Below, piece after piece: positions 8,488-26,604 of a stretch of 64,000 nucleotides of DNA. Numbering within the stretch: position 1 is the first letter of the stretch; the number at the start of each line of letters is the position of its first letter. This DNA is from Planctomycetota bacterium. GTDB lineage: Bacteria; Planctomycetota; Phycisphaerae; Phycisphaerales; SM1A02. The translations under genes and the position numbers were made by a program. Location: positions 2,706-66,705 of the forward strand of contig JAAELP010000193.1 of assembly GCA_024226535.1 (NCBI GenBank). The letters run 5' to 3'. Under the pieces are notes generated by a model. It saw only the letters and a list, made by a program, of their open reading frames with translations. It was not told the DNA's origin and did not search any database.

Positions 8488-9396
8488 TTGATGACTGCCG
8501 GGACCGAGCACGAGGCCGGAACGCAGGGCCCACCCCCCGCCCGGGTGCCCCCCGCTTCCGCTTCTTGGCGACGACCCCGGCCCCGCTGGAGCAGCCGGCT
8601 CTCGGCCCCCCTCCGCTGCCTGCCGGATTTTCTCGTCATCGGGGCCCAGCGGTCGGGGACGACCTTCCTGTTCCAGGAGCTCTCGCGCCACCCCGCCGTG
8701 TGGATGCCGCCGTGCAAGGAGTGCCACCACTTCACGGCGCGGATGCGGTCCAGCCTGTGGTATCGGGCGTTCTTCCTCACGCGGGCCGCCCGGCGCCGCC
8801 GGGAGCGGGCGTGCGGCCGGCCGGTGCTCGTGGGCGAGGGGACGCCGTACTACCTCGTTCACCCGGCCGTACCGGCGCGGGTGGCCCGGCTGCTTCCGGC
8901 GGCGCGGCTCGTGGTGCTGCTGCGCGACCCCGTCGAGCGCGCGTACTCCCACTACCGGCACGAGATCCGGTACGGCCGCGAGCACCTGAGCTTCGAGGAA
9001 GCGCTCGATGCCGAGCCGCGGCGCATCGCCGGCGAACGCGAGCGTCTCGCGCGATCGCGCTTCGCGGCGAGCCCGGCGTACCAGCAGCACTCCTACGTGG
9101 AGCGCGGGCGGTACGCCGAGCAGCTCGAACGGTGGTTCGCCCACTTCGACCGATCGCAGGTGCTCGTCGTCTTCTCCGAGCATCTCTACGCCGATCCCGC
9201 ATCGACGACGGCGCGCGTCGAGGAGTTCCTCGGCCTGCCGCCGGGACCGGAGCAGGCGGCGACCATCCCGAACCCGGGGCTCGAGCTGGGCCCGATGGCG
9301 GACGAGACGCGCCGCCGGTTGCGCGCCGAGTTCGCCGAGTCCGACCGCGCGCTGGAACGGCTGCTCGGCGTGGGGGTGCCGTGGCCGCGGAGCTGA
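8488..9396 (+). CDS. sulfotransferase (Sulfotransfer_1-like; resembles heparan-sulfate N-/3-O-sulfotransferase type)
   Basis: PAPS 5'-phosphosulfate loop FLVIGAQRSGTTFLFQELSRHP and 3'-phosphate motif LLRDPVERAYSHYRH. Confidence 0.85.
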   Translation: MMTAGTEHEAGTQGPPPARVPPASASWRRPRPRWSSRLSAPLRCLPDFLVIGAQRSGTTFLFQELSRHPAVWMPPCKECHHFTARMRSSLWYRAFFLTRAARRRRERACGRPVLVGEGTPYYLVHPAVPARVARLLPAARLVVLLRDPVERAYSHYRHEIRYGREHLSFEEALDAEPRRIAGERERLARSRFAASPAYQQHSYVERGRYAEQLERWFAHFDRSQVLVVFSEHLYADPASTTARVEEFLGLPPGPEQAATIPNPGLELGPMADETRRRLRAEFAESDRALERLLGVGVPWPRS

Positions 9397-9412
9397 TCGT
9401 CCGGGTCGTTGC

Positions 9413-9907
9413 TCAGGGGCACGGCCCCCATGCCGCGATGACCACGAGGATGTCCGCGAAGTCGACGGCGCCGTTGCCGTTGAGATCCTCGGGGCATCCT
9501 CCGCACGGTCCCCACGCCCCGATGTGCTGCCGCTGGCCGGCGCCGCTCGTGTCGCTCACGTGATCGAGCCTGACCCACGCCTCGATCGTGAAGCTCGCGT
9601 CGCCGAAGCTCAGAAGACCCGTCGGATCGACGACGTTGAAGCGGCCGCCCGACGCGGTGCTCTGCCAGTTCAGGTCGAGCGACTGCGTGTTCAGCGCGCC
9701 GGTGCCGGGCACGGGATCGACCGGGATCTCCGCGATCCGGAACGGCAGCGCGTTGAGCGTGCCGTCGAGACCGTTGGGCCCGCTGTCGACGACCGTCGTC
9801 CCGCCCGCGCCCTCGAAGCGCCAGTACGCCGTCTCGACGGCGTTCGCCGCGGTGGTGAGACCGCCGAGAACGATCGCGCCCGTCCCGATGACTGTCCAGA
9901 TACGCAT
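9413..9907 (-). CDS. mini family member: signal peptide + N-terminal half of the LamG domain fused directly to one dockerin-like repeat
   Basis: Track ORF, 164 aa. AYWRFEGAGG..FTIEAWVRLDHVSDTSGAGQRQ is followed immediately by HIGAWGPCGGCPEDLNGNGAVDFADILVVIAAWGPCP. Confidence 0.7.
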   Translation of the reverse strand: MRIWTVIGTGAIVLGGLTTAANAVETAYWRFEGAGGTTVVDSGPNGLDGTLNALPFRIAEIPVDPVPGTGALNTQSLDLNWQSTASGGRFNVVDPTGLLSFGDASFTIEAWVRLDHVSDTSGAGQRQHIGAWGPCGGCPEDLNGNGAVDFADILVVIAAWGPCP

Positions 9908-9935
9908 GCTGTTTCCCTCCTACCGCCAAGGCAGT

Positions 9936-10145
9936 TCAGCAGTCTCCCCACAACGACAGCAGCACGCCGATGTCGCTGATCCCGACGACGCCGTCGCCGT
10001 CGAGCTCCACCTGGATCACGTCGCCCCCAACGGCGACGTCGACGGCTCCCTGGACGGACGGAAAGTGATCCGGCACGATGATGGTCCCGGCCGTCGCGAC
10101 GTCGCAGACCGCGAGCAAGGCGAGTGATGAGATCATCCGTCTCAC
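9936..10145 (-). CDS. small secreted protein with a single degenerate dockerin-like C-terminus
   Basis: Track ORF, 69 aa. Leader MRRMISSLALLAVCDVATA; ends DGDGVVGISDIGVLLSLWGDC. Its GTG start overlaps the upstream GT2 stop by 4 nt (10142-10145), suggesting coupled translation. Confidence 0.5.
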   Translation of the reverse strand: MRRMISSLALLAVCDVATAGTIIVPDHFPSVQGAVDVAVGGDVIQVELDGDGVVGISDIGVLLSLWGDC

Positions 10146-11149
10146 GATTCACCTCCTGACACCTGGTGGGGCTCCTCCGCGCGCTTCCGAAGCAGGTACG
10201 CGAGCACGCCGTGCGTCATGCCGACGCCGCGCCAGACGGCGCGCACGGCGCTCATGCCGGCGAAGAGCACATGGCTCAGGCGCCCCGTGCGGCGCACGAT
10301 GGCGGTCGTCATGGGGATCTGCGTGACGAGCAGCAGGCCGAGGAGCACCACCGGCGTCCACCGCGCATACGGCACCACCGCCAGCGGCAGCGACGCGAGC
10401 AGGGCCATCGCGAGCATCGGCTGCACGTGATCGAGGGCGTTGCTGTACGAGTTGTGCCCCGCCCGACCCGGGTGCTCCAGGTGCAGCCAGACGCGCCAGT
10501 AGCCCTGTTGCCGCTGGGTCCTCAGGTACGAGCCGAGCCGCTGCTCGTGATAATGATCGACCCGGGAGCGCGCCTCGAAACGAAGACGGCCGCCGGCATC
10601 GCGGGCCCGGAACGACAACTCGGCGTCCTGGGCCTTCAGGTAGCGCTCGTCGAAGCCGTCGAGGTCCGCGAGCACCGAGCGCCGGTACAGCACGTTGAAC
10701 GTCGCGAGGAAGTCAACCTCCTCGCCCATGGCCAGGTGCCGCTGGACGATCTCCTCGTGGATGAGGCACGGGAGCAGGCTGTCCGCGTTCGCGTTGCCGT
10801 ACGTCCCGCTCACGGCGGCCACGTCCGGCGCCTCCAGGTGCCCGACGAGGTGCTCCAGGGCGTCGGGCGCCGCGACGCAGTCGGAGTCGACGAACCAGAC
10901 GAGGTCCCCGCGCGCCGCCCGCCAGCCGAGGTTCCGGGCGGAGCCCGCGCCGGACCCGGTTCCCGCGAGCACCGTCACCGGATGACGGCCCGCGATCGCC
11001 GCCGTGTCGTCGGTGGAGCCGTCGTCGACGAAGATGATCTCCTCCAGGGGCGATCCCGGCCGCGCGCCGATCGCGACGATCGCCGCGAGGCACGCCTCGA
11101 TCGTCGCGGCGCAGTTCCGTCCCGGGATGACGGCGCTCACCGTGCTCAT
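10142..11149 (-). CDS. family 2 glycosyltransferase with C-terminal membrane helices
   Basis: VIPGRNCAATIEACLAAI..IIFVDDGSTDDT..SARNLGW..WFVDSDC, followed by hydrophobic C-terminal spans. ATGA overlap with the upstream gene at 11146-11149. Confidence 0.85.
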   Translation of the reverse strand: MSTVSAVIPGRNCAATIEACLAAIVAIGARPGSPLEEIIFVDDGSTDDTAAIAGRHPVTVLAGTGSGAGSARNLGWRAARGDLVWFVDSDCVAAPDALEHLVGHLEAPDVAAVSGTYGNANADSLLPCLIHEEIVQRHLAMGEEVDFLATFNVLYRRSVLADLDGFDERYLKAQDAELSFRARDAGGRLRFEARSRVDHYHEQRLGSYLRTQRQQGYWRVWLHLEHPGRAGHNSYSNALDHVQPMLAMALLASLPLAVVPYARWTPVVLLGLLLVTQIPMTTAIVRRTGRLSHVLFAGMSAVRAVWRGVGMTHGVLAYLLRKRAEEPHQVSGGES

Positions 11150-13014
11150 TCCCGGACCTCCCTTCGGGCTTCCGACTCCTCGAGCCAGCGGCGTGCGCCG
11201 TCGTGCCCCGGGTCCGCGTCGAGCGCGCCGCGGTACGCGGCGGCGGCGGCGTCCATCCGGCCGAGCCGGAAGTGCGTGTTGCCGACGTTGTAGAGCGCCG
11301 ACGCGAGCAGGGCCTCGTCACGCGCGGCGCGGGCGAGCCGCGCGCCCTCCTCGAACGCCGGGATCGCCTCGTCGAAACGCTCCGCCTCCGTGAGGGCGTT
11401 GCCCAGCGCCAGGTAGGCCCCGGCGCTCGGCGCACGCTCGATAGCGCGCCGGTACGTCTCCACCGCGTCCTCCGGGCGCCCCGCCCGCCGGAGCGTGTCC
11501 GCCAGTTGGAGCAGCGCATCGGGACGCCGCAACTGCGGGGCGGCGACCTCCAGGTAGCGAAGCGCCTCGCCGAACCGGCCGGCCTCCGCGAGCGCGGATC
11601 CGTAGTTGAGCTCCGCGAGCGCGTCCCCCGGGCGCTCGGCCACGACCGCGCCGAGCACGTCGATCGCCTCGTCGATTCGCCCCGCCTCGTGCAGGGCGAC
11701 GCCGAGATTGACACGAGGCCGGCGGTGATGCGGCACCTGCTCGGCCGTCTTCGTCCAGAGCGCCAGCGGCGTGCGATAGTCGTGGTTGCGCACGATCGAG
11801 CGGGCCCCGAGGGCCGTCGTGGCCGCGACGAGGACCACCGCCCCGACGACCGCCGCCCGCGAGGGCCCGACCAGCCGCGGGGCCAACCACGTGAAGCCGG
11901 CGACCGCGAGCACCGCGAGCGCCGCCAGCGGCAGGTACATCCGGTGCTCGGCCGCGAGATCACGGATGGGCACGAAGCTCGAGGTCGGCGCGAGCCAGAT
12001 GAAGAACGCGGCTCCCGCGAAGGCGATCGGCCGACGGCGCCACGCGCCGACCACGGTCACCACGGCGGCGGCGGTGAGCAGCGCGCCGGGGATCACGACT
12101 TCGCGCGCCGTCGTCGCCGCCGGCCAGCCGGGGTCGATGCACAGCGAGCGGGGCCACGCCGCCAGCGCGACGTAGTGCACGATCACCCCCGCCTGCGTGA
12201 CGAAGTACTCCAGCGGCGTGACCTGCGCCACCCCGAAGCCCGCCGAGGGCGTTCCCGCGTCACCGGGCGCCCCGAAGATCGCCGCGAGCGTTCCGGTCGG
12301 AACCAGCACGAGCCACGTGCACGCGAGCGCCGCGTGGAGCGCGCCGCGCCGCCGCAGCGCCGCGCGCCACGACGACGAGACGACGATCCCGTCGAAGACC
12401 AGGGCGAGCACCGGCGCCACGACCATCGTCGGCTTGGCCCCCATGCCCAGCGCGCACGCGACGATCGCGACGGCCCACCACCGGGCCCCGCGCTCCGCGC
12501 GACCGGCGCGCAGCACCGCGTACAGCACGACGAACATGGCCAGCGCGGCCAGCACCTCCGACCGCTGGATCACGTAGGTCACCGACTCCGTCTGGAGCGG
12601 GTGCACGACCCACAGCAGCGCGGCGGCGAAGCCGATCGTGGTCGCGCCGCGCCGGCGGGCGACCACCCGGCGGACGAGGCCGAACAGCACGCAGGCGGCC
12701 GCGACGTGCAGGAGCACGTTCACCGCGTGGTAGCCGCGCGGGTCCAATCCCCCGAGTGCGTGGTTCGCCACGAGCGTCGCGGTCGTCACCGGGCGCCGAT
12801 CGCCGCGGAACAACTTTCGCAGGTCGCCCGACAGCTCGCCGGAGCGCTCGACGATCTGCGGCACGTCGTCGAAGACGAATGCCGCCGGAATCGCGTTGGC
12901 GTACACCGCCAGGCCGGCGACGACGATCACGACGTGCAGGATGAGGATCGATCGCCAGTCCCCGCGCCGGGGATCGCGGCCATCCCCCGGCATTGCCGGA
13001 GGCGCCTCGGTCAT
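11146..13014 (-). CDS. TMTC-like GT-C fold glycosyltransferase: multi-pass membrane domain + C-terminal TPR repeats
   Basis: YANAIPAAFVFDDVPQIV..RPVTTATLVANHALGGLDPRGYHAVNVLLH matches the FVFDD / RP..L / GYH..N..LH signature of TMTC (DUF1736) proteins. At least 9 hydrophobic spans. TPR-like C-terminus (NLGVALHEAGRIDEAIDVL.., YLALGNALTEAERFDEAIPAF.., LYNVGNTHFRLGRMDAAAAAYRGAL). Start moved to ATG 13014, which forms an ATGA overlap with the stop of 13011..14273. Track ORF extends to 13128. Confidence 0.8.
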   Translation of the reverse strand: MTEAPPAMPGDGRDPRRGDWRSILILHVVIVVAGLAVYANAIPAAFVFDDVPQIVERSGELSGDLRKLFRGDRRPVTTATLVANHALGGLDPRGYHAVNVLLHVAAACVLFGLVRRVVARRRGATTIGFAAALLWVVHPLQTESVTYVIQRSEVLAALAMFVVLYAVLRAGRAERGARWWAVAIVACALGMGAKPTMVVAPVLALVFDGIVVSSSWRAALRRRGALHAALACTWLVLVPTGTLAAIFGAPGDAGTPSAGFGVAQVTPLEYFVTQAGVIVHYVALAAWPRSLCIDPGWPAATTAREVVIPGALLTAAAVVTVVGAWRRRPIAFAGAAFFIWLAPTSSFVPIRDLAAEHRMYLPLAALAVLAVAGFTWLAPRLVGPSRAAVVGAVVLVAATTALGARSIVRNHDYRTPLALWTKTAEQVPHHRRPRVNLGVALHEAGRIDEAIDVLGAVVAERPGDALAELNYGSALAEAGRFGEALRYLEVAAPQLRRPDALLQLADTLRRAGRPEDAVETYRRAIERAPSAGAYLALGNALTEAERFDEAIPAFEEGARLARAARDEALLASALYNVGNTHFRLGRMDAAAAAYRGALDADPGHDGARRWLEESEARREVRE

Positions 13015-14273
13015 GACGGGGCCTCGGGGAGCGGGTACTCGTACGTGATCGTCGACGGCACGTACGGGAAGTCCATCCGCAGCCGGTACACGTCCATCCG
13101 ATCGGCGTCCCAGCCCAGCGACCCGCACACGTGGCGGACCATCTTCTCGTAGCGCGGCACGTCGCGCGTGCGCAGCACGCTCGGGCCCGACCCGAGGTAC
13201 TCGACCTGCTCGTGGATCGGCAGCCGATCGCGGTCCGACCGCAGCGTCGTGTACAGCGGGCGCCCGGCGAGCTCACCGTAGAGACGCGCCTGGGGCGCGA
13301 CGCGACCGTAGAGGTCCGCGGGCACCAGGTGGTCGAAGACCACGGTTCGACACGGCGTTCGTAGCTCGAGGTTCTGCGCGAGGATCCGGTTCGATTCGGC
13401 GCGATACCTCGGCATGACGGAACGCACGACCTCGCCGGTGAAGCACGTCACGGCGCCCTCGTTCCCCAGCGGCCCCGAGCCGACCTCGTCCTCCACGGTG
13501 CCGTCCTCAAGGATGCGCCTCTGCACTTCGGTCCGCGAGGTCGAGGAGAAATCGTGGAGGAGCGGGGCGCAGCCCGCCTTCGTGTCGTCGATCGCCTCGC
13601 GCTCGACGGGAATGGGCCGGCCGAGGTCGTCGGTCGGCCGCCAGCGCTCGATGACCCAGGAGCGGTCCGGGCGCAGGCGTCGCAAGCCCACGGACCCGAA
13701 GATCACGGCGGCGTCGAGCATGACGCCGTCCTGATTGGGGTTCACGATCACGGCGCGCATCATCGCGCGGGCCTGCACGCCCCAGATGAAGCTCGTCGCC
13801 TGGAAGCCGTCACGGCGATACAGGAGTTCGACGTCCCGGCCGTTCTCGGCCGCGAGCCCGGCGAGGATCATCTCGAACGTCTCCCGGTCACCGGCGTGCC
13901 GGGCGACGATCTCGTCGAGATTCGCCAGGGCCGTTCGGACCGCGGCCAGCCGCTCGGTCGAGACCCCGTGCCGCTTCGCGGCGGACAGGATCTTCTCGAC
14001 GGCGCCGGCACCCGGGATGCGCTGGAAGATCACGACCGGGTCGGTGCTCTCCATGATCTTGGCGAGCTTCCACGCGAGCGTCTTGTGGAGGCCGAGCGAC
14101 TTGGCGATCTCGTACGGCCGCTCGGTGGGCTCGGGCACGGTGCCGACCGCGTCCACGAACGCGTCCTGCACCCGCAGGAGGGCGTTGTGCGCCAAGGCCC
14201 CGACGCCCGCGTCGGCCGGGGTCGCGGGTCGGGATGGAATCGTCGAAGCCACGTCCCTCAACCCTATCCACAA
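13011..14273 (-). CDS. hypothetical protein, family not recognised (possible N-terminal HTH-like segment)
   Basis: Track ORF, 420 aa, with balanced, protein-like composition and no low complexity. ERPYEIAKSLGLHKTLAWKLAKIM looks helix-turn-helix-like. TTG start at 14273; alternative GTG at 14252. Confidence 0.65.
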   Translation of the reverse strand: MWIGLRDVASTIPSRPATPADAGVGALAHNALLRVQDAFVDAVGTVPEPTERPYEIAKSLGLHKTLAWKLAKIMESTDPVVIFQRIPGAGAVEKILSAAKRHGVSTERLAAVRTALANLDEIVARHAGDRETFEMILAGLAAENGRDVELLYRRDGFQATSFIWGVQARAMMRAVIVNPNQDGVMLDAAVIFGSVGLRRLRPDRSWVIERWRPTDDLGRPIPVEREAIDDTKAGCAPLLHDFSSTSRTEVQRRILEDGTVEDEVGSGPLGNEGAVTCFTGEVVRSVMPRYRAESNRILAQNLELRTPCRTVVFDHLVPADLYGRVAPQARLYGELAGRPLYTTLRSDRDRLPIHEQVEYLGSGPSVLRTRDVPRYEKMVRHVCGSLGWDADRMDVYRLRMDFPYVPSTITYEYPLPEAPS

Positions 14274-14354
14274 TCAGCCGCACCGAGAAGTAGGTAATCT
14301 GGGTTTTTGGAACCGCCCCCAAAAACGGTCTTGCCCAGTTCGACACCGGCCCGC

Positions 14355-15596
14355 TCACAGCCCGGGGAGGGCACCGGAACCCCCCGCCAGGCCCTCGTAG
14401 CGGGCCACCAGGACGTCGGCCAGCCTCTCCGTGTCGAACCGCTCGAGCGCCGCCGCCCGGCCCGCCGATCCGAGCCGGCCGGCGAGGTCGGCATCCTCGA
14501 GCCGGGCGATCCGCTCGGCCATCGCCTCGACGTCGTGCTCGTCGACCAGCCAGCCGGTGACGCCCTCGTCGACCTGGTGGGGAATGCCCGCGTGCCGGGT
14601 GGCCACGACCGGAAGCCCCGACGCCATCGCCTCCAGGATCACGGTGGGCGTGCCCTCCTCGTCGCCGTCCGACGCGCGGACGCTCGGGGCGATCAGCGCG
14701 TGCGCGCCGGCCATGAGCGCCGGCACGTCCTCGTGCCCGACGGCGCCGGCGAAGTGCACGGCATCGGCGATCCCCAGTTCGTCGGCGAGAGCGCGGAGTT
14801 CGCGGTCGAGCGGACCGTCGCCCGCGATGTGATAGGCGACGGGCAGCCCGCGGGCGCGGGCGAGGGCCACCGCGCGCAGCCCGTCGGCGAAGCCCTTCTT
14901 CTCGACGAGACGCCCCACCGACAGCAGTCTCAACGGTGGGCGCGGCGGCGCGTGCCCGGTGGGCGTGAAGCGCCGGCAGTCGACGGCGAGCGGGTGGACG
15001 TCGAGCTGCTCCGGCTTCGCCCCGAGCGCCTCGAGGCGGTCGCGCATCACCGGGTCGAGCGCCAGCACGAGCGCCGCGCGGTCGAACAGCCTGCGGTAGA
15101 CGTCGCCGCCGCGCTCCTGCGGGTACCGCGTCACGTCGTGCCCGTAGAACGTGGCCACGAGCGGTCCGCGCAGCACGCCCAACTCGTGCAGCATCGCCCC
15201 CGTGACCCCCGCCGGTCCGAAGTGACAGTGCACCGCGTCGAAGCGAGGTCGATCGAGCAGCGGCACCGCGGCGTGGAGAGCGGCGAAGGACAGCGCGTAC
15301 CGGCCGAACCGCAGCGGGTTCAGGGCCCGGCCGACGATCCGCGGGTGACACCAGGCGTGCCGAGCGGCGAGGGCCAGGCCGCTCAGGGTGCGGGGGAGCC
15401 GCGCCGTGGCGAGCGGCGGCTGCGGGCGCCAGTGCGACGCGAGACGCTCGCGGGCGGCGTCATCGACGGCCCCGGCCGGCGTCGGCGGGGCGAAGATGGC
15501 CAGCTCGTGCCCGCGCTCGAGCAGCCCCTCAAGCTGGCCGAGGACGTACGGCTGGTGGCGGCGGGGGAAGTCAGGGACGAGAATCGCGATCTTCAT
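14355..15596 (-). CDS. GT-B fold glycosyltransferase (GT4 family, WcaL-like)
   Basis: MKIAILVPDFPRRHQPYVLGQLEGLLERGHE at the N-terminus. C-terminal EEGTPTVILEAMASGLPVVATRHAGIPHQVDEGVTGWLVDE (E-x7-E region). Start moved to ATG 15596; track ORF begins at 15641. Confidence 0.85.
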   Translation of the reverse strand: MKIAILVPDFPRRHQPYVLGQLEGLLERGHELAIFAPPTPAGAVDDAARERLASHWRPQPPLATARLPRTLSGLALAARHAWCHPRIVGRALNPLRFGRYALSFAALHAAVPLLDRPRFDAVHCHFGPAGVTGAMLHELGVLRGPLVATFYGHDVTRYPQERGGDVYRRLFDRAALVLALDPVMRDRLEALGAKPEQLDVHPLAVDCRRFTPTGHAPPRPPLRLLSVGRLVEKKGFADGLRAVALARARGLPVAYHIAGDGPLDRELRALADELGIADAVHFAGAVGHEDVPALMAGAHALIAPSVRASDGDEEGTPTVILEAMASGLPVVATRHAGIPHQVDEGVTGWLVDEHDVEAMAERIARLEDADLAGRLGSAGRAAALERFDTERLADVLVARYEGLAGGSGALPGL

Positions 15597-15655
15597 CGGC
15601 CACGCCGCCCCGTCGATGACACCCGGAAGACACCACGCCACGCAGTGCCGGCCCC

Positions 15656-18024: not shown

Positions 18025-18131
18025 CGCGAGCGTCTCCGGCGGGCCGGGGCACATGGGCGGGTTTCCAGGCGGGGGGAGGTCACGCGGCGGTCATGGTACC
18101 GGGCGCGACCATTTACCATGAGCGAGCGGAC

Positions 18132-19046: not shown

Positions 19047-19936
19047 GCGCCGTGCCACGAGTCTCCGTCATCATGATCGTCCTCGACGGCGAGCGCTTCC
19101 TGCCCGAGGCGCTCGACAGCGTCGTCGCCCAGACGATGCCGGACTGGGAGCTGGTCATCGTCGACGACGGATCGACGGACCGGACCCCCGAGATCGCCGG
19201 GGCGCTCGCGGCCCGGGAGCCCGAGCGCGTGCGCGTGGTGACGCACCCCGACCGCACCAACCGCGGCATGAGCGCGTCGCGCAACCTCGGCGTGCGCGAG
19301 AGCCGCGGTGCCTACGTCACGTTCCTCGATCACGACGACGTCATGATGCCGGAGAAGCTGCGCGAGCAGGCGGCGCTGCTCGACGACCACCCCAACGCCG
19401 CCGCCGTCTTTGGCCCCAACCTGCTCTGGCGATCGTGGGATCCCGGCGCCGGCGACGAGCCGGACGAGATCCAGACGCTGGACCTGCCCACCGACCGCGT
19501 CGCACCGCCTCCGGGCCCGCTGCCGTCGTACCTGGCGAGCAGCGCGGCCACGCCGCTCGGCTTCATGATCCGGCGCACCGCGTTCGACGACGTCGGCGGA
19601 TACGAGGAGACGTTCCGCGGCATGTACGAGGACCAGGTCTTCCAGGCCAAGCTCTACCTCGACCATCCCGTGTACGTCTCGAGCCGGGTGTGGATCCGGT
19701 ACCGGCGGCACCCGGACTCGTGCGTCATCCGGACGTTCCGGGAAGGCGGTCAGCTCCTCGCCCGCCGTCGCTTCCTGCACTGGCTGCGCGACCATGTCGC
19801 GAGCCGGCCCGTCGCCGATGCCGAACTGCGACGGCTGATCCGGGAGGAGCTGCGACGGACGGGCCGCGCCCGCGCGACCTGGCTCGTGCGGCAGGCGCGC
19901 AACCGGATCGCGAGGTTCCTCGGTCGCGGTTCGTGA
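19043..19936 (+). CDS. family 2 glycosyltransferase
   Basis: VSVIMIVLDGERFLPEALDSVVAQT..LVIVDDGSTDRT..SASRNLG..TFLDHDD. GTG start at 19043 overlaps the upstream stop (GTGA). Confidence 0.85.
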   Translation: MSAVPRVSVIMIVLDGERFLPEALDSVVAQTMPDWELVIVDDGSTDRTPEIAGALAAREPERVRVVTHPDRTNRGMSASRNLGVRESRGAYVTFLDHDDVMMPEKLREQAALLDDHPNAAAVFGPNLLWRSWDPGAGDEPDEIQTLDLPTDRVAPPPGPLPSYLASSAATPLGFMIRRTAFDDVGGYEETFRGMYEDQVFQAKLYLDHPVYVSSRVWIRYRRHPDSCVIRTFREGGQLLARRRFLHWLRDHVASRPVADAELRRLIREELRRTGRARATWLVRQARNRIARFLGRGS

Positions 19937-19943
19937 GCGCGGG

Positions 19944-20882
19944 TCACGTACGCCCGGCGAGGGCGTCGTCGAGCGTTCGTTGCGGCGACCAGCCGAGCGT
20001 CTCACGGATGCGCCGGTTCGAGTAGCGCCACGGCCGGCAGCGCGCCGCCAGCTCGCGGCGGGCGAGAAGGCCGGTCGCGCCGAGGAGACGGAGCAGGGTC
20101 CAGGGGACCGGCACGAGGAACGGCGCCGGATCGCGTTGGCGGCGGATTCGCCGCGCGTATTCGAGTTGCGTGGGTGTCTCGTCGTCGACGATGTTGAGCG
20201 CGACGCCGCGCACGTCGTCGCGCTCCGCCGCGATGACGATGGCGTCGGCGCAGTTCTCGACGTACGTCAGGGGCAGCGGCGCCCGCGTGCCCATGAGGAC
20301 CCACAGGCGCGACGAGAGCGCGCGGCCCAGCCGCCACGTCCACAGCCGCTCCGGGCCGTACACGACGCCGGGCCTGAGGATCAGCCAGTCGATCCCGGCC
20401 GCCGCCGCCCGATCGACCATGAGCTGCTCCTGCTCGAGCTTCGCGTGGCAGTAGGCGCCTCGCTGCTCGGGGTGGGGCTCCAGGGGCGAGGTCTCGTCGA
20501 TGATCCCGTCGCCCCGCGGCCTCGCGTAGTCGTAGACCGCGATCGAGCTGACGCCGACGAGGCGGCGCGCGCCCGCGGCCTCCATCGCGTCGAGGAGGTG
20601 CCCGGTGCCGGTGACGGTGGACGCGAACTGCTCGTCGCGGCTGCCAGCCATCGCCGCCGCGAGGTGCACGACGACGTCGACGTCGGCGAGGTGACCGTCG
20701 AGACCGTCACGATCGCGCAGGTCGTGGCGGACGATCTCGATGCCGGCGTCGTTCGACCGGTCGAGCGCCGCGGTATCCGCCGTGGGGCGCACGAGCGCGC
20801 GCACGCGATGCCCGCGTCGCAGCGCCGCCGCGGCGGTCGAGCGGCCGATGAACCCACGGGCTCCGGTGACGAGCATGCGCAC
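19944..20882 (-). CDS. NAD-dependent sugar epimerase/dehydratase (extended SDR)
   Basis: MRMLVTGARGFIGRS Rossmann motif and catalytic YCHAK (YxxxK). Confidence 0.85.
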   Translation of the reverse strand: MRMLVTGARGFIGRSTAAAALRRGHRVRALVRPTADTAALDRSNDAGIEIVRHDLRDRDGLDGHLADVDVVVHLAAAMAGSRDEQFASTVTGTGHLLDAMEAAGARRLVGVSSIAVYDYARPRGDGIIDETSPLEPHPEQRGAYCHAKLEQEQLMVDRAAAAGIDWLILRPGVVYGPERLWTWRLGRALSSRLWVLMGTRAPLPLTYVENCADAIVIAAERDDVRGVALNIVDDETPTQLEYARRIRRQRDPAPFLVPVPWTLLRLLGATGLLARRELAARCRPWRYSNRRIRETLGWSPQRTLDDALAGRT

Positions 20883-20974
20883 GCGGCGTCTCCTCGTCGC
20901 GCAGGATACGGTACGATTCGTCCGCGCGTGGCGATCGGCGCCCGACGGCGTACGCGGGACCGCGAGGACCGGGC

Positions 20975-22168
20975 ATGAACACCGCCATCATCGGCTGCGG
21001 CTACGTCGCCGACTTCTACGCGACCAACGCCCGGGCCCACCCCGACGTCGCGATCGCGGGCGCGTACGACGCCTCGCCCGAACGCGCGAAGGCGTTCGGC
21101 GCCCACTTCGACGTCGCGACCTACGAGTCGCTCGACGCGGTGCTGGCCGACGGATCGGTCGAGCTGGTGCTCAACCTGACGAACCCGCGCTCCCACCTCG
21201 AGGTGACCAGGGCGTGCCTGGAGGCGGGCAAGCACGTGTACTCGGAGAAGCCGCTCGCGATGGACCTCGACGGCGCCCGGAGCCTCGCCGCCCTCGCAGC
21301 CGAGCGCGGCGTGCGTCTCGGGTCGGCCCCGTGCAGCGTGCTGAGCAACCCGGCCCAGACCGCGTGGAAGGCGATCCGCGACGGCGCGATCGGACCGGTG
21401 CGCCTGGTCTACGCGAGCTTCGACGAGGGGCTCGACGCCCCGCGGCGCCGTCCGTGGACCTGGACGAGCGTCTCCGGCGCGCCGTGGCCGGCGCAGGACG
21501 AGTTCGAGGTCGGCTGCACCTTCGAGCACGCCGGGTACGTGCTCACGTGGCTCGCGGCGTTCTTCGGTCCGGCCCGGCGCGTGACGAGCTTCTCGTCGTG
21601 CCTGGCCGCGGACAAGGGGATCGCGGTGGACGCGATGGCCCCCGACTTCTCCGTCGGGTGCCTCGAGTACGACGGCGGCATCGTCGCGCGCGTGACGTGC
21701 GGGCTCACCGCCCCGCGCGACAAGTCGCTCGTCGTCGTCGGGGATGACGGCATCCTCGTCCTGAACGATCTTCGCGACGAGCGGGAGCCGGTCTACATTC
21801 GGCGCGAGTCGGCGACGGGCGCAGTCGGCCGGGCCGAGCGCGCGCTGCGCTGGCTCCAGGCCCGCACCCGACCGCTCACCGGCTGGGTGCCATGGCCGCG
21901 CGCCCCGTGGACGCTGCACCGCCGCTTGCCCGACGCGCTGGGGACGCCGGTGCACCCGGCCGGTCGGGGCAAGCCCGTGGACTTCCTGCGCGGCGTGCAG
22001 GACATGGTCGACGCGATCCGGAAGGACCGGCCGCACCGCTTGTCGGCGGAGCTTGGCGTGCACCTCGTCGAGCTGATCGACGCGCTCCAGTTCCCGGAGC
22101 GGGGCGGCCACCACCGGGCGATCGAGACGACGTTCCCCGCGATCCCGCCGCTGCCGGCGGGCGGGTGA
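20975..22168 (+). CDS. Gfo/Idh/MocA-family NAD(P)-dependent oxidoreductase
   Basis: MNTAIIGCGYVADFYA Rossmann start and the EKPLAMDL motif. Confidence 0.85.
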   Translation: MNTAIIGCGYVADFYATNARAHPDVAIAGAYDASPERAKAFGAHFDVATYESLDAVLADGSVELVLNLTNPRSHLEVTRACLEAGKHVYSEKPLAMDLDGARSLAALAAERGVRLGSAPCSVLSNPAQTAWKAIRDGAIGPVRLVYASFDEGLDAPRRRPWTWTSVSGAPWPAQDEFEVGCTFEHAGYVLTWLAAFFGPARRVTSFSSCLAADKGIAVDAMAPDFSVGCLEYDGGIVARVTCGLTAPRDKSLVVVGDDGILVLNDLRDEREPVYIRRESATGAVGRAERALRWLQARTRPLTGWVPWPRAPWTLHRRLPDALGTPVHPAGRGKPVDFLRGVQDMVDAIRKDRPHRLSAELGVHLVELIDALQFPERGGHHRAIETTFPAIPPLPAGG

Positions 22169-22171
22169 TCG

Positions 22172-22879
22172 TCACCCCGCGCGGTCGAACATCGCGCCGT
22201 GGGGCCCGCCCGCGAAGTGCTCCCGCAGGGCGTCGTGGTTTGCGAGCACGCGCGACAGGTCGTCGTCGGTGTTCTTCACGACCTCGCTCGCGAGCGGCGC
22301 GGGCGGCACGTCGAGGAAGGCCATTATCTCGGCGAGCCGGCCCTCGGGGTCGGTCAACAGGTCCTCGTAGCAGAGCGCCAGCCGGGGAAGCTCGAGCGTG
22401 TCGGCGAACGCCGCGAGGCGCTCCCGGAGTTCGCGGCACTCGTCCAGCTCCCGCTCCAGGTCGGCGGGCTCCAGCTCGAACGGCGGGAGCGCCGCCGTGT
22501 CCCGGCTCCGGTTCCAGCGCCCGGTCCGCTCGTGCAGGCGGCGCGCGTTGATCGTGGACACGGCCAGCTTGATCGTGTTGCGACGATCGAGCACGACCAC
22601 GCGCACGCCCCGCTCCTGCAGCAGATGCCGGAACGCGTCCAGGTCCCAGACGTCCTTCAGCTTCGTCTTGAAGCCCCGCGCGAGCACGCCGCCGCGCCGC
22701 CGGCGCCCGTAGAACCGCTCGATCCACCCGCGCTGGCTCCGTGGGGACCGGCGCACGAGCCGCTCGCCCTCGGCCTCGATCGCCGGGTGGGAGTCGAGGC
22801 ACGAGATGAGCCAGGAGCTTCCCGTGCGTCCCGGGAAGAGCACGACGAAGGGCGTCGGGTTGACCGGCGGCATACCCAT
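22172..22879 (-). CDS. sulfotransferase (NodH/Stf0-like class)
   Basis: FVVLFPGRTGSSWLISCLDSHP (5'-PSB) and VVVLDRRNTIKLAVS (3'-PB-like). Start at ATG 22879 (MGMPPVN). The 141 upstream codons of track ORF 22172..23302 are low-complexity. Confidence 0.75.
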   Translation of the reverse strand: MGMPPVNPTPFVVLFPGRTGSSWLISCLDSHPAIEAEGERLVRRSPRSQRGWIERFYGRRRRGGVLARGFKTKLKDVWDLDAFRHLLQERGVRVVVLDRRNTIKLAVSTINARRLHERTGRWNRSRDTAALPPFELEPADLERELDECRELRERLAAFADTLELPRLALCYEDLLTDPEGRLAEIMAFLDVPPAPLASEVVKNTDDDLSRVLANHDALREHFAGGPHGAMFDRAG

Positions 22880-23035
22880 GAAGCTACCGTATCCTCTTCC
22901 CCATGGCTTCGCCCCCGGCATTGATCGATCCGGACCGGCCCTCGGCCCTCGGCCGCCGGCCGCCGGCCACCCCTGGCTCACCGCTTCCGAGCGCTCGCGG
23001 GCCGCGCGATCGACCGGCCGCGCGGCCGACGGCGC

Positions 23036-23692
23036 CTGCACCTGATCCACATCGGGAAGACCGGCGGCACGGCGCTGAAGTACGCGCTGTCCGGTCATCG
23101 CCGGACGCCGGAGATCCGGATCGTCGTGCACACGCACCATGTCGCGCTCCGCGACGTGCCGCCCGGCGACCTGTTCATGTTCTTCGTCCGTGATCCGATC
23201 AGCCGATTCGCCAGCGCGTTTCGCAGCCGGCAGCGGCAGGGACGGCCCCGGTACCACACGCCCTGGAGCGAGGAAGAGCGGTGCGTCTTCGATCGCTTCC
23301 ACTCACCCAACGAGCTCGCGCACGCCCTCGCGTCCGACGACGCGGCGCGGCGCGCCGAGGCCGAAGCGGCGATGCGCGCGATCCGGCACGTGCGGACGTC
23401 GTACTGGGACTGGTTCGGCAGCGAAGCGGTGTTCCGCGCACGGCTGTCCGATCTCTACTTCGTCGGCTTCCAGGAGACGTTGCCCGAGGACTTCGCGGCG
23501 CTTCGCGCGAAGCTCGGGCTGCCGGACACGGTGACCCTGCCGGAGGACGACGTCGCCGCGCACCGGACGCCGCTCGACGTCGACGTGCACCTCGACGAGG
23601 ACGCGCAGGCGATCCTGCGGCGCTGGTACGAGAAGGACTGCGCGTTCGTGGGTCTCTGCCGCGAGATCGCCGACCGTCCGGCGGCCTGCTAG
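23036..23692 (+). CDS. sulfotransferase (Sulfotransfer_2-like; HS 2-O/6-O-type motifs); start codon unresolved, possibly non-canonical or 5'-damaged
   Basis: The track ORF starts at GTG 23126, but the same frame upstream encodes the PAPS loop LIHIGKTGGTALKY (23042-23083). 3'-PB motif FFVRDPISRFASAF lies downstream. There is no ATG/GTG/TTG in frame between the stop at 22922 and 23126, so I placed a provisional CTG start at 23036. Confidence 0.6.
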   Translation: MHLIHIGKTGGTALKYALSGHRRTPEIRIVVHTHHVALRDVPPGDLFMFFVRDPISRFASAFRSRQRQGRPRYHTPWSEEERCVFDRFHSPNELAHALASDDAARRAEAEAAMRAIRHVRTSYWDWFGSEAVFRARLSDLYFVGFQETLPEDFAALRAKLGLPDTVTLPEDDVAAHRTPLDVDVHLDEDAQAILRRWYEKDCAFVGLCREIADRPAAC

Positions 23693-24621
23693 CGTTCCTC
23701 GAGATACTCGCGGTAGAAACGGCCCGCCAGGCCCTCGACGAGACCGCGCCCCCAGGCGAGCCAGCAGCGCCCGCGCACGCGGGTCGCGTGCCCCGCTACG
23801 GCGCCGGCGAGCAGCACGCCGGCGCCGAGGAGCATCCAGACCACCGCCTTGGCGGCCACGAGCGGATACGCGACGACCGCCGGGCGGAGATCGCGCTCGA
23901 TGAGCGCCGTCGTCATCCCCGTGCGCCGATGACGGCGCACCAGCCACCGCGCCGTCATCCGCTCCGCGGGAACGAGATCCTCGACCACCGCCTCGTCGGC
24001 CCACGCGATCGACGCCCCCGCGGCCCGCAGGCGACGGAAGAAGTGCACGTCCTCCCCGCCGATGAGCCCGAACCGAAGGTCGACGCGCGTCGCTGTGGTC
24101 CGGAGGCACTCGGCGCTCATGAGCACGTTGTTCGTGAAGGCGCTCGCGCGGGCCGATCCCGTCGGCGCCGAATGCGGTGCGAAGAAACGACCGCGCTCGA
24201 GCCAGGCGGGCGGCGGGTGCTCGTAGATCGGTGCGACCGGCCCGGTGACGACCTCCGCGCCGGCTCGGCGCTGCACCTCCAGGAGGCTCGCGAGCCAGGC
24301 GCCGGTGGCGACGCTGTCGTCGTCGATGAAGGCGATGAAGTCGTGGTCGACGATCGCGTGCTCGATGGCTCGATTCCGGGGCGCGGCGAGCCCGCGCTCC
24401 GGCTCCGCGAGGCAGACGATCTCGAACGGGTACGCGTCGGGCACCGCGGCGCAGATCTCCGCCGGGCGCGTGTCCTGCGGATCGTTGTTCACCACGACCA
24501 CCGTGACGCGCGGGGCCGGGTCGGGCAGCGCGAGCGCGCCGAGGCTCTCCAGGACGCGCGCCAGGCCCTCGGCCCGGTGGAACGTCGAGATGCACACGGC
24601 GATGCGGGGCGTTCGGCTCAT
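23689..24621 (-). CDS. family 2 glycosyltransferase
   Basis: MSRTPRIAVCISTFHRAEGLARVLESL..VVVVNNDPQD..APRNRA..FIAFIDDDS. ATG 24621 forms an ATGA overlap with the upstream stop. Confidence 0.8.
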   Translation of the reverse strand: MSRTPRIAVCISTFHRAEGLARVLESLGALALPDPAPRVTVVVVNNDPQDTRPAEICAAVPDAYPFEIVCLAEPERGLAAPRNRAIEHAIVDHDFIAFIDDDSVATGAWLASLLEVQRRAGAEVVTGPVAPIYEHPPPAWLERGRFFAPHSAPTGSARASAFTNNVLMSAECLRTTATRVDLRFGLIGGEDVHFFRRLRAAGASIAWADEAVVEDLVPAERMTARWLVRRHRRTGMTTALIERDLRPAVVAYPLVAAKAVVWMLLGAGVLLAGAVAGHATRVRGRCWLAWGRGLVEGLAGRFYREYLEER

Positions 24622-25535
24622 GTGCGCACGCGGTATTCCTGGTGCCGGAACCCGACCATCCCCGCCAGCAGACCGAACGCCCGCGCCCAGTCCTCCCCGG
24701 CGAAGAGGAACGCCGCCCGCCCGCGGGCCGGCAGCGAGAGCAGCCGCAGGGCACCGCGGGCCACGTACCTCGCCGCGCGCCAGGGAAGACGCCGAAGCGC
24801 CGCCCCGAGGCCATCGAGATCGCGCTCGATGTAGGCATCGGTGCCGCCGATCCTCAGCGACCGGCGCAGGATCCAGCCCGTCGTGAGCCGGGCGGCCGGC
24901 ACCCACTCGTAGGCGATCGCCGCGTCGGCCCACACGATGCGGAACCCCGCGCGGCGCACCCGGCGGAAGAAGTGCGTGTCGCTGCCTCCGCAGTGCGCCA
25001 TGCGCTCATCGAAGTTCGGCTGCACGGCCCCGAAGACCTCGCGCCGGGTGAGCACGTTGTGCGTGTATGCGAACGGGCGCTCCGCCCCGGTCTCGTACCG
25101 GAGCAGGTCGAACGCCCCGCTGCGGACGAGCCACGTCGGCGCCTCGGCGGGGAAGCGGGGGACGGCCGGGCCGGTGACCACGTCGGCGCCGGTCTGCGCC
25201 TGCACGGCGAGCAGCTCGGCGAGCCACCGCGGATCGACGGTCTCGTCGTCGTCGACGAAGACGATGAAGTCGGTGGTCTCCGCGGCGCGGGCGACCGCCG
25301 TGTTGCGCGCGAAGGGAATGCCGCGCCGCGCCTCGGTCTCGTAGCGGAGCGATCCCGGCAGCGCGTCCGCCGACCGGGCGCACAGCGCCCGGGCCCGCTC
25401 GTCGGGATCGTTGTCGACCACGAGCACTTCGACTTCGGGAGTCACCTCCGAGAACTCCAGCTCGGAGATCGACGCCAGCAGGCGCTCGAGCCCTTCCGGT
25501 CGGTTGCACGTGATGATGCAGATCGTGACGTGCAC
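24618..25535 (-). CDS. family 2 glycosyltransferase (tandem paralog of 23689..24621)
   Basis: VHVTICIITCNRPEGLERLLASI..VLVVDNDPDE..FARNTA..FIVFVDDDE. GTG start chosen at 25535. The alternative ATG 25571 would overlap the divergent gene's start. Confidence 0.8.
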   Translation of the reverse strand: MHVTICIITCNRPEGLERLLASISELEFSEVTPEVEVLVVDNDPDERARALCARSADALPGSLRYETEARRGIPFARNTAVARAAETTDFIVFVDDDETVDPRWLAELLAVQAQTGADVVTGPAVPRFPAEAPTWLVRSGAFDLLRYETGAERPFAYTHNVLTRREVFGAVQPNFDERMAHCGGSDTHFFRRVRRAGFRIVWADAAIAYEWVPAARLTTGWILRRSLRIGGTDAYIERDLDGLGAALRRLPWRAARYVARGALRLLSLPARGRAAFLFAGEDWARAFGLLAGMVGFRHQEYRVRT

Positions 25536-25569
25536 GGCTCGACACTCCCGACTGGTACTATAGATCGCC

Positions 25570-26604
25570 ATGTCCGGTGTGCCAATGATTTCGGTGATGG
25601 TGCCGACGTGCAACCGCAGCGCCATGACGCGCCGATGCCTCGACGCCCTCGCGAAGCAGACGCATCCGAACGTCGAGATCGTCGTCGTCGACGACGCATC
25701 GACCGACGACACGCCGGCGATGATCGATGCCTTTCGCGCCGAGCATCCCGACCTGAACCTGCTCGTGCTGCGCAACGACGAGAACCTGGGGGCCAACGCG
25801 AGCCGCAATCTCGGCGTGCAGGCGACTTCGGGCGACTTCGTCGCGTTTCTGGACAGCGACTGCATCGCCGAACCGGGCTGGCTCGAGCAGCTCCTGCGGG
25901 GGTTCGACGACGAGCGGGTTGGCGCCGTCACCGGGCTCGTGCTCGATCCGCCGCCGCGCAACGTCTACGACCTGACGTTCCGGGGCACCCACCGCGTCGC
26001 GAAACGCGGCCCCGCGCGGCGGCTCGTCGCGGGCAACTTGTGCGTGCGGCGCACGCCGCTGCTGGCCGCCACGTGGGACGAGCACGCCGAGCGCCCCCCG
26101 CGGCTCGACGACGGGCGTCCCGACGTCACCTTCTCCGGCGCGTGCGACGAGGAGGGGCTCGGCGTCGCCCTGCGGGCGGCGGGATGGACCCTGCTCGCTC
26201 GCCCCGAGGCCGTCGTCCTGCACGAGCATCACTACGACCGGCGGTCGTTCTTCCGGCAGGCGTACCACGGGGGGCGCGCCGCGGCCGAGTTCGTGCACCG
26301 GTACCGCCTCCCGCCGCGCCTCGACATGGCCCCGTTCCTCGTCGCCTACGGGACCCTGCCCGTGGCGCTGGCGCTCGTCCCGTGGCTCGGGTGGTGGCCG
26401 CTCGCCATCCCCGCGCTCGCCTTCGCGGCGGCGCTCGCGGCGATCACCTACAACGATCTCGCCCGCAAGGGCAAGACGCCCTGGCAGACGATCCGGTCGT
26501 TCCCCGTGCTCGTGGCTTACTACCACGTGCGGCTGTTCGGGTACGTGGGCAAGGGGCTGTCGCTGCGCCTCAGCCGGCGCCCGCCGGCCAGATCAGTGGC
26601 ATGA
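25570..26604 (+). CDS. family 2 glycosyltransferase with C-terminal membrane helices
   Basis: ISVMVPTCNRSAMTRRCLDALAKQT..IVVVDDASTDDT..ASRNLG..AFLDSDC. Hydrophobic C-terminus. Alternative start at ATG 25585. Confidence 0.8.
   Translation: MSGVPMISVMVPTCNRSAMTRRCLDALAKQTHPNVEIVVVDDASTDDTPAMIDAFRAEHPDLNLLVLRNDENLGANASRNLGVQATSGDFVAFLDSDCIAEPGWLEQLLRGFDDERVGAVTGLVLDPPPRNVYDLTFRGTHRVAKRGPARRLVAGNLCVRRTPLLAATWDEHAERPPRLDDGRPDVTFSGACDEEGLGVALRAAGWTLLARPEAVVLHEHHYDRRSFFRQAYHGGRAAAEFVHRYRLPPRLDMAPFLVAYGTLPVALALVPWLGWWPLAIPALAFAAALAAITYNDLARKGKTPWQTIRSFPVLVAYYHVRLFGYVGKGLSLRLSRRPPARSVA

Follow-up and report, generated by a model that had tools for sequence, protein, structure and literature searches.

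A conserved Phycisphaerae gene island with sulfotransferases of several lineages and its predicted role in the assembly of a sulfated surface glycan

A glycan-assembly gene island carrying five recognisable sulfotransferase (ST) genes, together with glycosyltransferase (GT), flippase and sugar-tailoring genes, was identified in a 64,000-nucleotide stretch (hereafter referred to as the window) of contig JAAELP010000193.1 from a Planctomycetota bacterium of the class Phycisphaerae (assembly GCA_024226535.1). Essentially the same gene set recurs in six related contigs. Judged from its gene content, this conserved Phycisphaerae island probably directs the assembly of a surface glycan with O-sulfate groups at several positions, completed by a route other than the Wzy-dependent one. 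Four of the ST genes are intact in the window and the fifth, ST5, is frameshifted as assembled.

Raw lists of open reading frames (ORFs) are mostly noise in this DNA since its G+C content is about 70%; genes were, therefore, called by the GC content of third codon positions (GC3), which is 0.84-0.96 across the island genes. The nearest named relatives of the window proteins are from metagenome-assembled genomes (MAGs) of the Phycisphaerales and Phycisphaerae. An earlier note on this DNA, made without database searches, had the island begin at 8488. Its left edge lies before position 1, as the ortholog of a tetratricopeptide repeat (TPR) membrane protein gene found within the islands of the relatives sits at 1-1335, and its size is thus at least 26 kb; the genes for the giant PA14/LamG proteins described below consequently fall inside it. 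The right edge, at 26604, is the end of the gene for the glycosyltransferase GT2e, which in L088, one of the related contigs, is followed directly by a 182-aa gene and thiE.

The five ST genes, with the Pfam scores of their products, are as follows:

8488-9396, plus strand: ST1, of the heparan-sulfate 3-O-sulfotransferase (3-OST)/N-deacetylase-N-sulfotransferase (NDST)-like branch (PF13469, 62 bits; PF00685, 60 bits)
15656-16468, plus strand: ST2, Sulfotransfer_3 type (PF13469, 39 bits)
18093-19046, plus strand: ST3, Sulfotransfer_3, tyrosylprotein sulfotransferase (TPST)-like (PF13469, 115 bits)
22172-22879, minus strand: ST4, a divergent sulfotransferase (PF13469, 35.7 bits)
22903-23692, plus strand: ST5, Sulfotransfer_2 type (PF03567, 34 bits for the body), with the motifs HIGKTGGT and FVRDPISRFAS, frameshifted after about codon 13
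22936-22942 and 22943-22949, plus strand: CGGCCCT twice, a 7-bp tandem duplication in ST5, recognised from DNA alignment with L088 and frame analysis

All five, including the body of ST5, score over the Pfam gathering thresholds (27 and 22 bits for the families of ST1-ST4, and 22 bits for PF03567). Each carries the 5'-phosphosulfate-binding (5'-PSB) loop and the 3'-phosphate-binding (3'-PB) motif of enzymes that use 3'-phosphoadenosine 5'-phosphosulfate (PAPS), and every motif quoted in the earlier note is present. PF13469 matches ST1 to ST4, PF00685 matches ST1 and PF03567 the ST5 body, so that the recognition of five PAPS-type STs stands; the implied presence of five active enzymes does not, given the state of ST5 in this assembly. 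In the orthologs, the catalytic motifs are invariant, the PAPS loops are conserved apart from R/K, G/A and S/T substitutions, and the 3'-PB motifs are conserved.

ST1 has the PAPS loop GAQRSGTT, the 3'-PB motif LLRDPVERAYSHY (LLRDPVERAYS) and a GEGTPYY segment, the Glu of which aligns with the catalytic Glu of 3-OST; its best match among the PDB sequences is the bacterial ST 3rnl (E 9e-23), followed by 3-OST-3A1 (E 8e-18). Its orthologs, at 45-60% identity, carry K in the PAPS loop where the window ST1 has R. The motifs of ST2 are GMHRSGTS, GWKDPRT and AYRSPAEVIDS (orthologs at 48-87% identity), and those of ST3 are GAPRSGTT, VEKTPDH and VVRDSRAVCAS (orthologs at 57-86%). ST3 matches 2z6v (E 6e-8), 4gox (E 1e-7) and TPST2 (E 1.4e-5) among the PDB sequences, while ST2, ST4 and ST5 gave no significant match there. 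ST4 has GRTGSS, GFKTKLKD and the 3'-PB motif VLDRRNTIKLAVS, with orthologs at 54-79% identity. Its description as NodH/Stf0-like is weak, the match to the NodH structure 9vki having an E-value of 0.13; matches of ST4 to protein A among the PDB sequences were discarded as low-complexity noise.

No transmembrane (TM) or signal segment was found in any of the five STs, which are predicted to be soluble cytoplasmic proteins, fitting the use of PAPS. Pairwise identity among them does not exceed 27% over partial alignments and is mostly not significant by BLAST. They do not share a recent common ancestry and are, therefore, not redundant duplicates.

The earlier note had started ST5 at 23036, which is a CTG codon. 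The body frame of the enzyme has no ATG, GTG or TTG 5' of the HIGKTGGT loop; the true ATG is at 22903, encodes MASPPALIDPDRPS and is out of frame with the body on account of the 7-bp tandem duplication. In L088, whose Wzx is 92% identical to that of the window, ST5 is an intact 262-aa protein beginning MASPPVKPDPDRPS, and in the DNA alignment of the two contigs the window has a 7-base insertion that is a perfect tandem repeat. L090, with a Wzx 87% identical, has an intact 279-aa ortholog starting MASPP. Removal of one CGGCCCT copy restores a 260-aa ST5 ORF, while the frame of ATG 22903, as assembled, yields 96 nonsense codons and then a stop. Most of 19 metagenomic ST5 relatives have a canonical start 8-25 codons ahead of the HIGKTGGT loop. 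A non-canonical (CTG/ATC) start had also been considered for ST5 and was rejected when the alignment with L088 showed the frameshift. Since the ST5 body remains intact past the shift, the damage is either of recent date or was introduced in assembly; pseudogenisation that took place recently, a variant of the strain or an error in the assembly could each account for it. On this reading of the alignments, the window holds four intact STs and one that appears very recently disrupted or mis-assembled.

Several observations on genes of the ST5 family and their surroundings may be added. The start codons of ST4 and ST5, on opposite strands, are 23 bp apart at 22879-22903 (30 bp in L088), and any divergent promoters must, therefore, fall within coding regions. 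An ST5-like gene in L064 (3-650, minus strand; 37% identity) likewise has no ATG, GTG or TTG ahead of its PAPS loop, only CTG and ATA codons, and its ORF opens at the stop codon that ends the LamG gene before it. ST5-family genes also occur in the unrelated metagenome contigs L071-L073, L077, L078 and L086, apparently mostly from soil, where they usually lie directly 3' of an ST2-like sulfotransferase gene, and in L080, where the neighbour is ST1-like. Such ST pairs seem to form a recurrent module beyond this clade.

The relatives of the island were fetched with the conserved protein unk420 (13011-14252) and Wzx as queries. In six related Phycisphaerae-type contigs the ST set is co-conserved with the GTs, Wzx, the SDR-family enzyme and the Gfo/Idh/MocA oxidoreductase (48-92% identity, and 48-87% for the orthologs of ST1-ST4) despite rearrangements, which bears out the earlier proposal of one coherent sulfated-glycan locus. 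L088 and L090 are collinear with the window (73-92% identity), and ST2-ST5 were detected in each; L090 spans the whole gene set, and L088 spans GT2e to GT4 only, because the contig ends. L064, L065, L068 and L089 are rearranged, at about 48-63% identity, and keep ST1-ST4, GT4, GT2a-e, Wzx, SDR, Gfo, unk420 and GT-C; L089 has a further ST (PF13469, 27 bits). Counted with the ST hidden Markov models (HMMs), the window has five ST ORFs, five of the six related loci have four to five, and L065 has two within the fetched stretch. Several local arrangements persist through the rearrangements: the divergent GT4/ST2 pair is kept in L064, L065, L068, L088, L089 and L090, ST3 followed by GT2b in L064, L068, L088, L089 and L090, and the order unk420, GT-C, GT2a throughout. 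L089 also encodes, at 1606-2940 and 592-1560 respectively, a 444-aa protein without Pfam match or TM segment (apparently beta-propeller-like) and a methyltransferase, neither of which is present in the window.

The abundance of STs was compared with a background set taken from other species, in which 63 loci centred on Wzx (908 kb in all, GTDB species genomes) were scanned with HMMs built from the five ST ortholog sets. No ST was found in 51 of the 63 loci, one ST in 12, and two or more in none, so that the window exceeds this background by far in its density of STs. The assertion that bacterial polysaccharide loci rarely encode even one sulfotransferase was, thus, overstated. The Wzx-centred scan of the GTDB species genomes yielded relatives of at most 45% identity, without synteny.

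The glycosyltransferase, flippase and sugar-tailoring genes agree with the earlier assignment of five GT2 enzymes, one GT4, a Wzx, an SDR epimerase and a Gfo/Idh/MocA oxidoreductase:

10142-11149, minus strand: GT2a, with C-terminal membrane helices (TM-like at 242-285), last gene of the unk420/GT-C/GT2a unit (PF00535, 98 bits)
14355-15596, minus strand: GT4, divergent from ST2 (PF00534, 125 bits; PF13439, 57 bits)
16474-18024, minus strand: Wzx flippase of the MOP/PST type with 12 TM segments by TM scan (PF13440, 289 bits)
19043-19936, plus strand: GT2b, with a GTG start at 19043 in a 4-bp overlap (GTGA) with the ST3 stop (PF00535, 111 bits)
19944-20882, minus strand: short-chain dehydrogenase/reductase (SDR)-family NAD-dependent epimerase/dehydratase, for sugar-nucleotide tailoring (PF01370, 111 bits)
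20975-22168, plus strand: Gfo/Idh/MocA oxidoreductase of the sugar dehydrogenase type (PF01408, 89 bits)
23689-24621, minus strand: GT2c, with one C-terminal TM segment (PF13641, 66 bits)
24618-25535, minus strand: GT2d (PF00535, 73 bits)
25570-26604, plus strand: GT2e, with C-terminal membrane helices by TM scan, at the right-hand end of the island (PF00535, 122 bits)

Against the NCBIfam models, Wzx scores 240 bits for MOP flippase (cutoff 273) and 184 bits for TuaB. GT2c and GT2d are paralogs with 40% identity in pairwise BLAST. Orthologs of GT2a (67-81% identity) always lie 3' of the GT-C gene; those of GT2c occur in L065, L068, L088, L089 and L090, those of GT2d are 62-77% identical, those of the SDR enzyme 48-84% in L088, L089 and L090, and those of the Gfo/Idh/MocA enzyme 63-86%. 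A hopanoid-type reading was rejected, the NCBIfam HpnA, HpnB and HpnI scores being far under the cutoffs.

The suggestion that the product is glycosaminoglycan (GAG)-like is not supported by this inventory, as no GAG synthase, UDP-glucose dehydrogenase, N-deacetylase or C5-epimerase is among the Pfam and NCBIfam matches of the window. GT2a matches chondroitin synthase (E 1.7e-8 over 100 residues) only as GT2 enzymes do in general, and ST1 is the one ST that resembles the sulfotransferase domains of heparan-sulfate 3-OST/NDST (E 8e-18 to 2e-13).

Two polytopic membrane proteins with C-terminal TPRs and one protein of a large uncharacterised family are also encoded in the island:

11146-13014, minus strand: GT-C-type enzyme with about 10-11 TM segments and C-terminal TPRs, PMT_2-related via homologs, with a conserved FVFDD loop
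13011-14252, minus strand: unk420, a conserved cytoplasmic protein with a helical N-domain and a beta-sandwich, without Pfam match (413 aa; P0001 is 100% identical)
1-1335, minus strand: N-terminal 445 aa of a polytopic TPR membrane protein, with a GTG start at 1335, no internal stop and a GC3 of 0.93, cut by the left edge of the window

The GT-C enzyme has 622 residues from ATG 13014, a start fixed by the 100% identical protein P0071, with 10 TM-like segments by hydropathy and TPR Pfam matches at 470-642; its AlphaFold2 (AF2) model is all-helical with a predicted local distance difference test (pLDDT) score of 89. In the FVFDD loop D49 is invariant and D50 nearly so. PMT_2 (PF13231) is matched by the N-domains of six of 13 homologs that are 41-61% identical (best E 2e-8) and stands in the precomputed family list for P0071. 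DUF1736 (PF08409), the hallmark of the TMTC proteins (PMC7801869), was found neither in the 13 N-domains nor in the precomputed lists, and phmmer with the full protein returned TPR matches only. The earlier description of the enzyme as TMTC-like, therefore, holds for its architecture, a TM domain followed by TPRs, and not for its family: no DUF1736 was found, and the PMT_2 relationship is seen in six of the 13 homologs and not in the window protein itself. The product of 11146-13014 is accordingly treated here as a putative PMT_2-related GT-C/TPR enzyme and not as a member of the TMTC family.

The GT-C gene is translationally coupled to unk420 (ATGA overlap) and overlaps the GT2a gene by 4 bp. 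The AF2 model of unk420 has a pLDDT of 90.9, and Foldseek found no fold match above a TM-score of 0.28 among the solved structures; resemblances of its beta-sandwich to Ost1/ribophorin I and LTA4H (TM-score at most 0.28) were not taken as homology. The family comprises 3084 representative clusters of a uniform length of about 410 aa and is uncharacterised and without a Pfam model. unk420 adjoins the GT-C gene in L064, L065, L068, L089 and L090, and the ST island holds only the unk420 subclade that is at least 53% identical, a 35% homolog lying outside. In the relatives, a small GT2 and DUF2304 gene pair adjoins the unk420/GT-C/GT2a unit; it resembles a polyprenyl-phosphate-sugar synthase/donor module, which may serve the GT-C enzyme (compare the GtrB/ArnC/Ppm-type systems). 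The 1-1335 product is 54% identical over residues 1-449 to an 815-aa protein of L089 (tblastn). Its full-length orthologs have about 815 aa, about 10 TM segments and C-terminal TPRs, a weak sub-threshold match to DUF6541 (E 8.6e-5) was obtained, and the ortholog lies between GT2a and ST3 in L064, L065 and L089.

Neither Wzy, a polysaccharide co-polymerase (PCP; Wzz/Wzc) nor an outer membrane polysaccharide export protein (OPX; Wza) was found by Pfam among the called genes of the window or among the listed genes of the six related islands, and a priming phosphoglycosyl transferase of the WbaP/WecA type was likewise found in none of them; cysC and cysDN, for PAPS synthesis, are not among the called window genes. 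The Pfam scans, thus, agree with the absences reported in the earlier note, and its alternative of a pathway split across loci or not of the classical Wzx/Wzy type is consistent with them.

From this gene content we infer the substrate, the order of the steps, the acceptor and the product as follows. The SDR and Gfo/Idh/MocA enzymes would tailor a nucleotide sugar, and GT4 with several of the GT2 enzymes would assemble a hetero-oligosaccharide on polyprenyl-phosphate at the cytoplasmic face of the membrane, the priming enzyme being encoded elsewhere. Four or five soluble, mutually unrelated, PAPS-dependent STs would then each sulfate a different hydroxyl of the lipid-linked intermediate. PAPS is available in the cytoplasm; since the STs are soluble, sulfation would have to take place on the cytoplasmic lipid-linked intermediate before flipping. 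The conservation of five unrelated STs as orthologs, and not as duplicates, implies different acceptor positions. Wzx would flip the sulfated unit, and the periplasmic finish would be carried out by the two polytopic TPR proteins, namely the GT-C enzyme (with the coupled unk420 and GT2a) and the 1-1335 protein, in place of the classical Wzy/PCP/OPX set. This last stage is considered non-classical because the window and the related islands lack Wzy, PCP and OPX and the two polytopic TPR proteins are conserved instead. Transfer of the glycan to acceptors at the cell surface, for example calcium-binding PA14/LamG proteins, is modestly favoured over the export of a free polymer.

The giant PA14/LamG proteins and two small dockerin-like proteins are encoded in the left-hand part of the island:

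1425-5222, minus strand: giant acidic secreted protein with PA14 (91 bits) and Laminin_G_3 (42 bits) domains, CNGNGIPDECD repeats and, at its C-terminus, a dockerin-like module; its true start probably lies downstream of 5222
5051-7843, minus strand: a further giant LamG/Ca-repeat protein, whose C-terminus is of the same dockerin-like kind (Laminin_G_3; 65% identical ortholog in L064)
7929-8324, minus strand: small signal-anchored protein with two dockerin-like modules (Dockerin_1, 27 bits) and one TM-like N-terminal segment
9413-9907, minus strand: dock2, a LamG N-terminus fused to a dockerin-like C-terminus, an internal-deletion derivative of a LamG giant gene

Orthologs of the 1425-5222 gene (50-58% identity) lie beside the island in L064, L065 and L068, and those of 7929-8324 are found in L064 and L068. 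Residues 1-143 of dock2 are 72% identical to the N-terminus of the full-length 953-aa LamG gene of L090, in which the LamG protein genes lie 3' of GT2a. In the window, L064, L065, L068 and L090, thus, PA14/LamG genes adjoin the island or lie within it, and this arrangement suggests that the glycan product may be attached to, or interact with, these proteins. The giants and the two small proteins share a C-terminal module, GAWGPC..CPEDLNGNGxVDFADILVVIGAWGPC, and the giants have many CNGNGIPDECD repeats of calcium-binding type and about 13% Asp.

A number of points weigh against the proposal of a multiply sulfated surface glycan with a non-Wzy finish. The window is without a priming phosphoglycosyl transferase, Wzy, PCP, OPX and PAPS-synthesis genes. 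About ten transcription units, on alternating strands, make up the island, and its operon structure thus does not imply co-expression. The frameshift leaves ST5 with no intact translatable ORF in this assembly. The GT-C N-domain of the window protein gave no PMT_2 match at E <= 1, a profile of the N-domains gave no match to PDB sequences, and the top 50 Foldseek matches of the full-length AF2 model were all to TPRs, which swamped the search, with no GT-C fold among them. The PA14/LamG proteins are Asp/Gly-rich and not Ser/Thr-rich, and their adjacency could be mere clade synteny. Finally, the source is an uncultured MAG and the case is read from sequence.

Among the other explanations, a classical Wzx/Wzy-dependent sulfated exopolysaccharide or capsule of the synechan kind is possible, with Wzy, PCP, OPX and the priming transferase encoded elsewhere and the TPR proteins accessory or unrelated. 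The flippase is WzxC/TuaB-like, six GTs fit the assembly of a repeat unit, and the OPX gene of synechan is also off-cluster, cyanobacterial ST clusters being often partial (PMC8205485). This account is weakened in that no Wzy, PCP or OPX gene is seen in any of the six related islands, of up to 21 kb each, and that two polytopic TPR proteins are co-conserved within the island instead. It is unlikely that two separate pathways are merely co-located here, unk420/GT-C/GT2a (with the GT2/DUF2304 pair) being a PMT/GtrB-type module that adds single sugars to periplasmic proteins and the Wzx, GT and ST genes making an unrelated sulfated glycan. The three genes do form a tight, translationally coupled block whose internal order is constant even though it is placed differently among the other genes from one relative to the next, and distant homologs of unk420 occur outside glycan loci (L067); yet the block lies within the ST island in all six relatives that are at least 53% identical, with ST genes on both sides of it.

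That some or all of the STs act on substrates other than glycans, such as tyrosine residues of secreted proteins, lipids or small molecules, is regarded as very unlikely. The acceptor specificity of an ST is rarely fixed by sequence alone, and the solved relatives of ST3 include TPST1/2, the polyketide-associated 4gox and CurM (4gbm), and the uncharacterised 2z6v and 2zq5. Every ST of the island, however, lies among GTs, with conserved ST-GT gene pairs, and no polyketide synthase, non-ribosomal peptide synthetase or lipid-synthesis genes were found in the island by Pfam. A decaying or inactive island, with the ST5 frameshift as the first sign, would account for the 7-bp duplication and for dock2 as a deletion derivative of a LamG gene, but is most improbable: all the other island ORFs are intact, their GC3 values (given above) and catalytic motifs are maintained, and the ST5 body is undamaged past the shift. 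The assembly of a multiply sulfated surface glycan with a non-Wzy finish remains the preferred reading.

A bolder version of the preferred reading, which we consider quite improbable, is a bacterial 'proteoglycan' system, in which a polysulfated oligosaccharide built on a lipid and flipped by Wzx would be put on the PA14/LamG proteins by TMTC-like TPR GT-C enzymes. If true, the Phycisphaerae would carry a coat of sulfated glycoproteins comparable to the proteoglycans or mucins of eukaryotes, and the unk420 family, with its 3,000 members, would represent a cytoplasmic partner of such GT-C enzymes that had so far escaped notice.

The remaining called genes of the window are housekeeping genes by Pfam scan (alaS, tpiA, secG, tmk, thiE, cytochrome c assembly, HtrA and others). 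At the right edge of the island (26570-28850) lie genes for a CitMHS/ArsB-type transporter and a Usp-domain protein; CitMHS is at the same place in L090, whose contig ends before the Usp gene, and both genes are absent in L088. The pair was considered as a sulfate-uptake part of the island and rejected, as it matches ArsB/CitMHS only and is absent in L088. A low-molecular-weight phosphotyrosine phosphatase gene (PF01451; 32518-33066, minus strand) is located 6 kb to the right of the island; the partner tyrosine kinase (Wzc) is not in the window, and a link of the phosphatase to polysaccharide export is, therefore, not indicated.

The synthesis of sulfated polysaccharides in bacteria is represented by one genetically dissected model (synechan, with two STs) and a few candidate clusters, and such polymers have been called exclusive to cyanobacteria in papers as late as 2021-2026 (PMC8205485, PMC13390465). 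The known role of Planctomycetota with respect to sulfated algal glycans is their consumption, for which these bacteria have large sulfatase families (PMC4807772). Among the papers searched, none linked sulfotransferases with the Phycisphaerae, and the sole match to a search that combined Planctomycetota with sulfotransferases, glycosyltransferases and sulfation was a review of brown-algal fucoidans. Four to six STs of different lineages in one conserved island point to a marine planctomycete clade as a producer, too, of multiply sulfated glycans. This is relevant to the question of where the sulfated polymers of biofilms and of marine organic matter come from; GAG-like sulfated material has also been described from anammox granules, without assignment to a producer (cited in PMC7356697). 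A compact set of soluble bacterial STs genetically paired with GTs could also provide regiospecific tools for the animal-free preparation of heparin-like and other sulfated glycans. Taken together, the GT-C/TPR enzymes, unk420 and the PA14/LamG proteins are suggestive of a final stage of the non-Wzy kind.

Among the known systems closest to the island, the TMTC1-4/PMT O-mannosyltransferases (PMC7801869) resemble the GT-C enzyme in architecture: an N-domain with about 11 TM segments precedes TPRs on the extracytoplasmic side, the first loop holds an acidic motif, and family members show homology to PMT_2; unlike them, the window protein has no detected DUF1736 loop and falls under the Pfam PMT_2 threshold. 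Pontiella sulfatireligans F21, of the PVC superphylum, has been shown to make a sulfated GAG-like exopolymer and has a putative sulfated-GAG cluster rich in GT2 and GT4 enzymes, with an ST and a TuaB/Wzx-type flippase (PMC7356697). That cluster has one ST, an aminotransferase and a methyltransferase, and the sulfation measured in the exopolymers of the strains was mostly N-sulfation (PMC7356697), whereas the window island has neither an N-deacetylase nor an aminotransferase. The wps-1 locus of Actinoplanes missouriensis (PMC13390465) resembles the island in being a non-cyanobacterial exopolysaccharide cluster whose STs come from different families and include a heparan-sulfate-ST-like enzyme comparable to ST1, but has two STs, a complete Wzx/Wzy/Wzz set and no GT-C/TPR proteins.

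The xss cluster for synechan in Synechocystis PCC 6803, like its cyanobacterial counterparts for sulfated exopolysaccharides, is similar in its many GTs, its PAPS-type STs of different subfamilies and its Wzx; cytoplasmic sulfation of the lipid-linked unit is presumed there too, and part of the export machinery is off-cluster (PMC8205485). It has two STs and eight GTs, in comparison with the five STs (four intact) of the island, and encodes Wzy, PCP and the XssQRS regulators (PMC8205485), none of which was found in the window, where no STAND or two-component genes of the XssQ/R/S type are among the called genes. The island differs further in its two TPR polytopic proteins, its conserved unknown protein and its embedded PA14/LamG proteins, and in belonging to the Planctomycetota. 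Thus, the logic of the island, in which GTs and STs are combined with a Wzx, is a known one, and what is new is the unusually large and diverse complement of STs, the different end-stage apparatus and the occurrence in a phylum without described biosynthesis of this kind.

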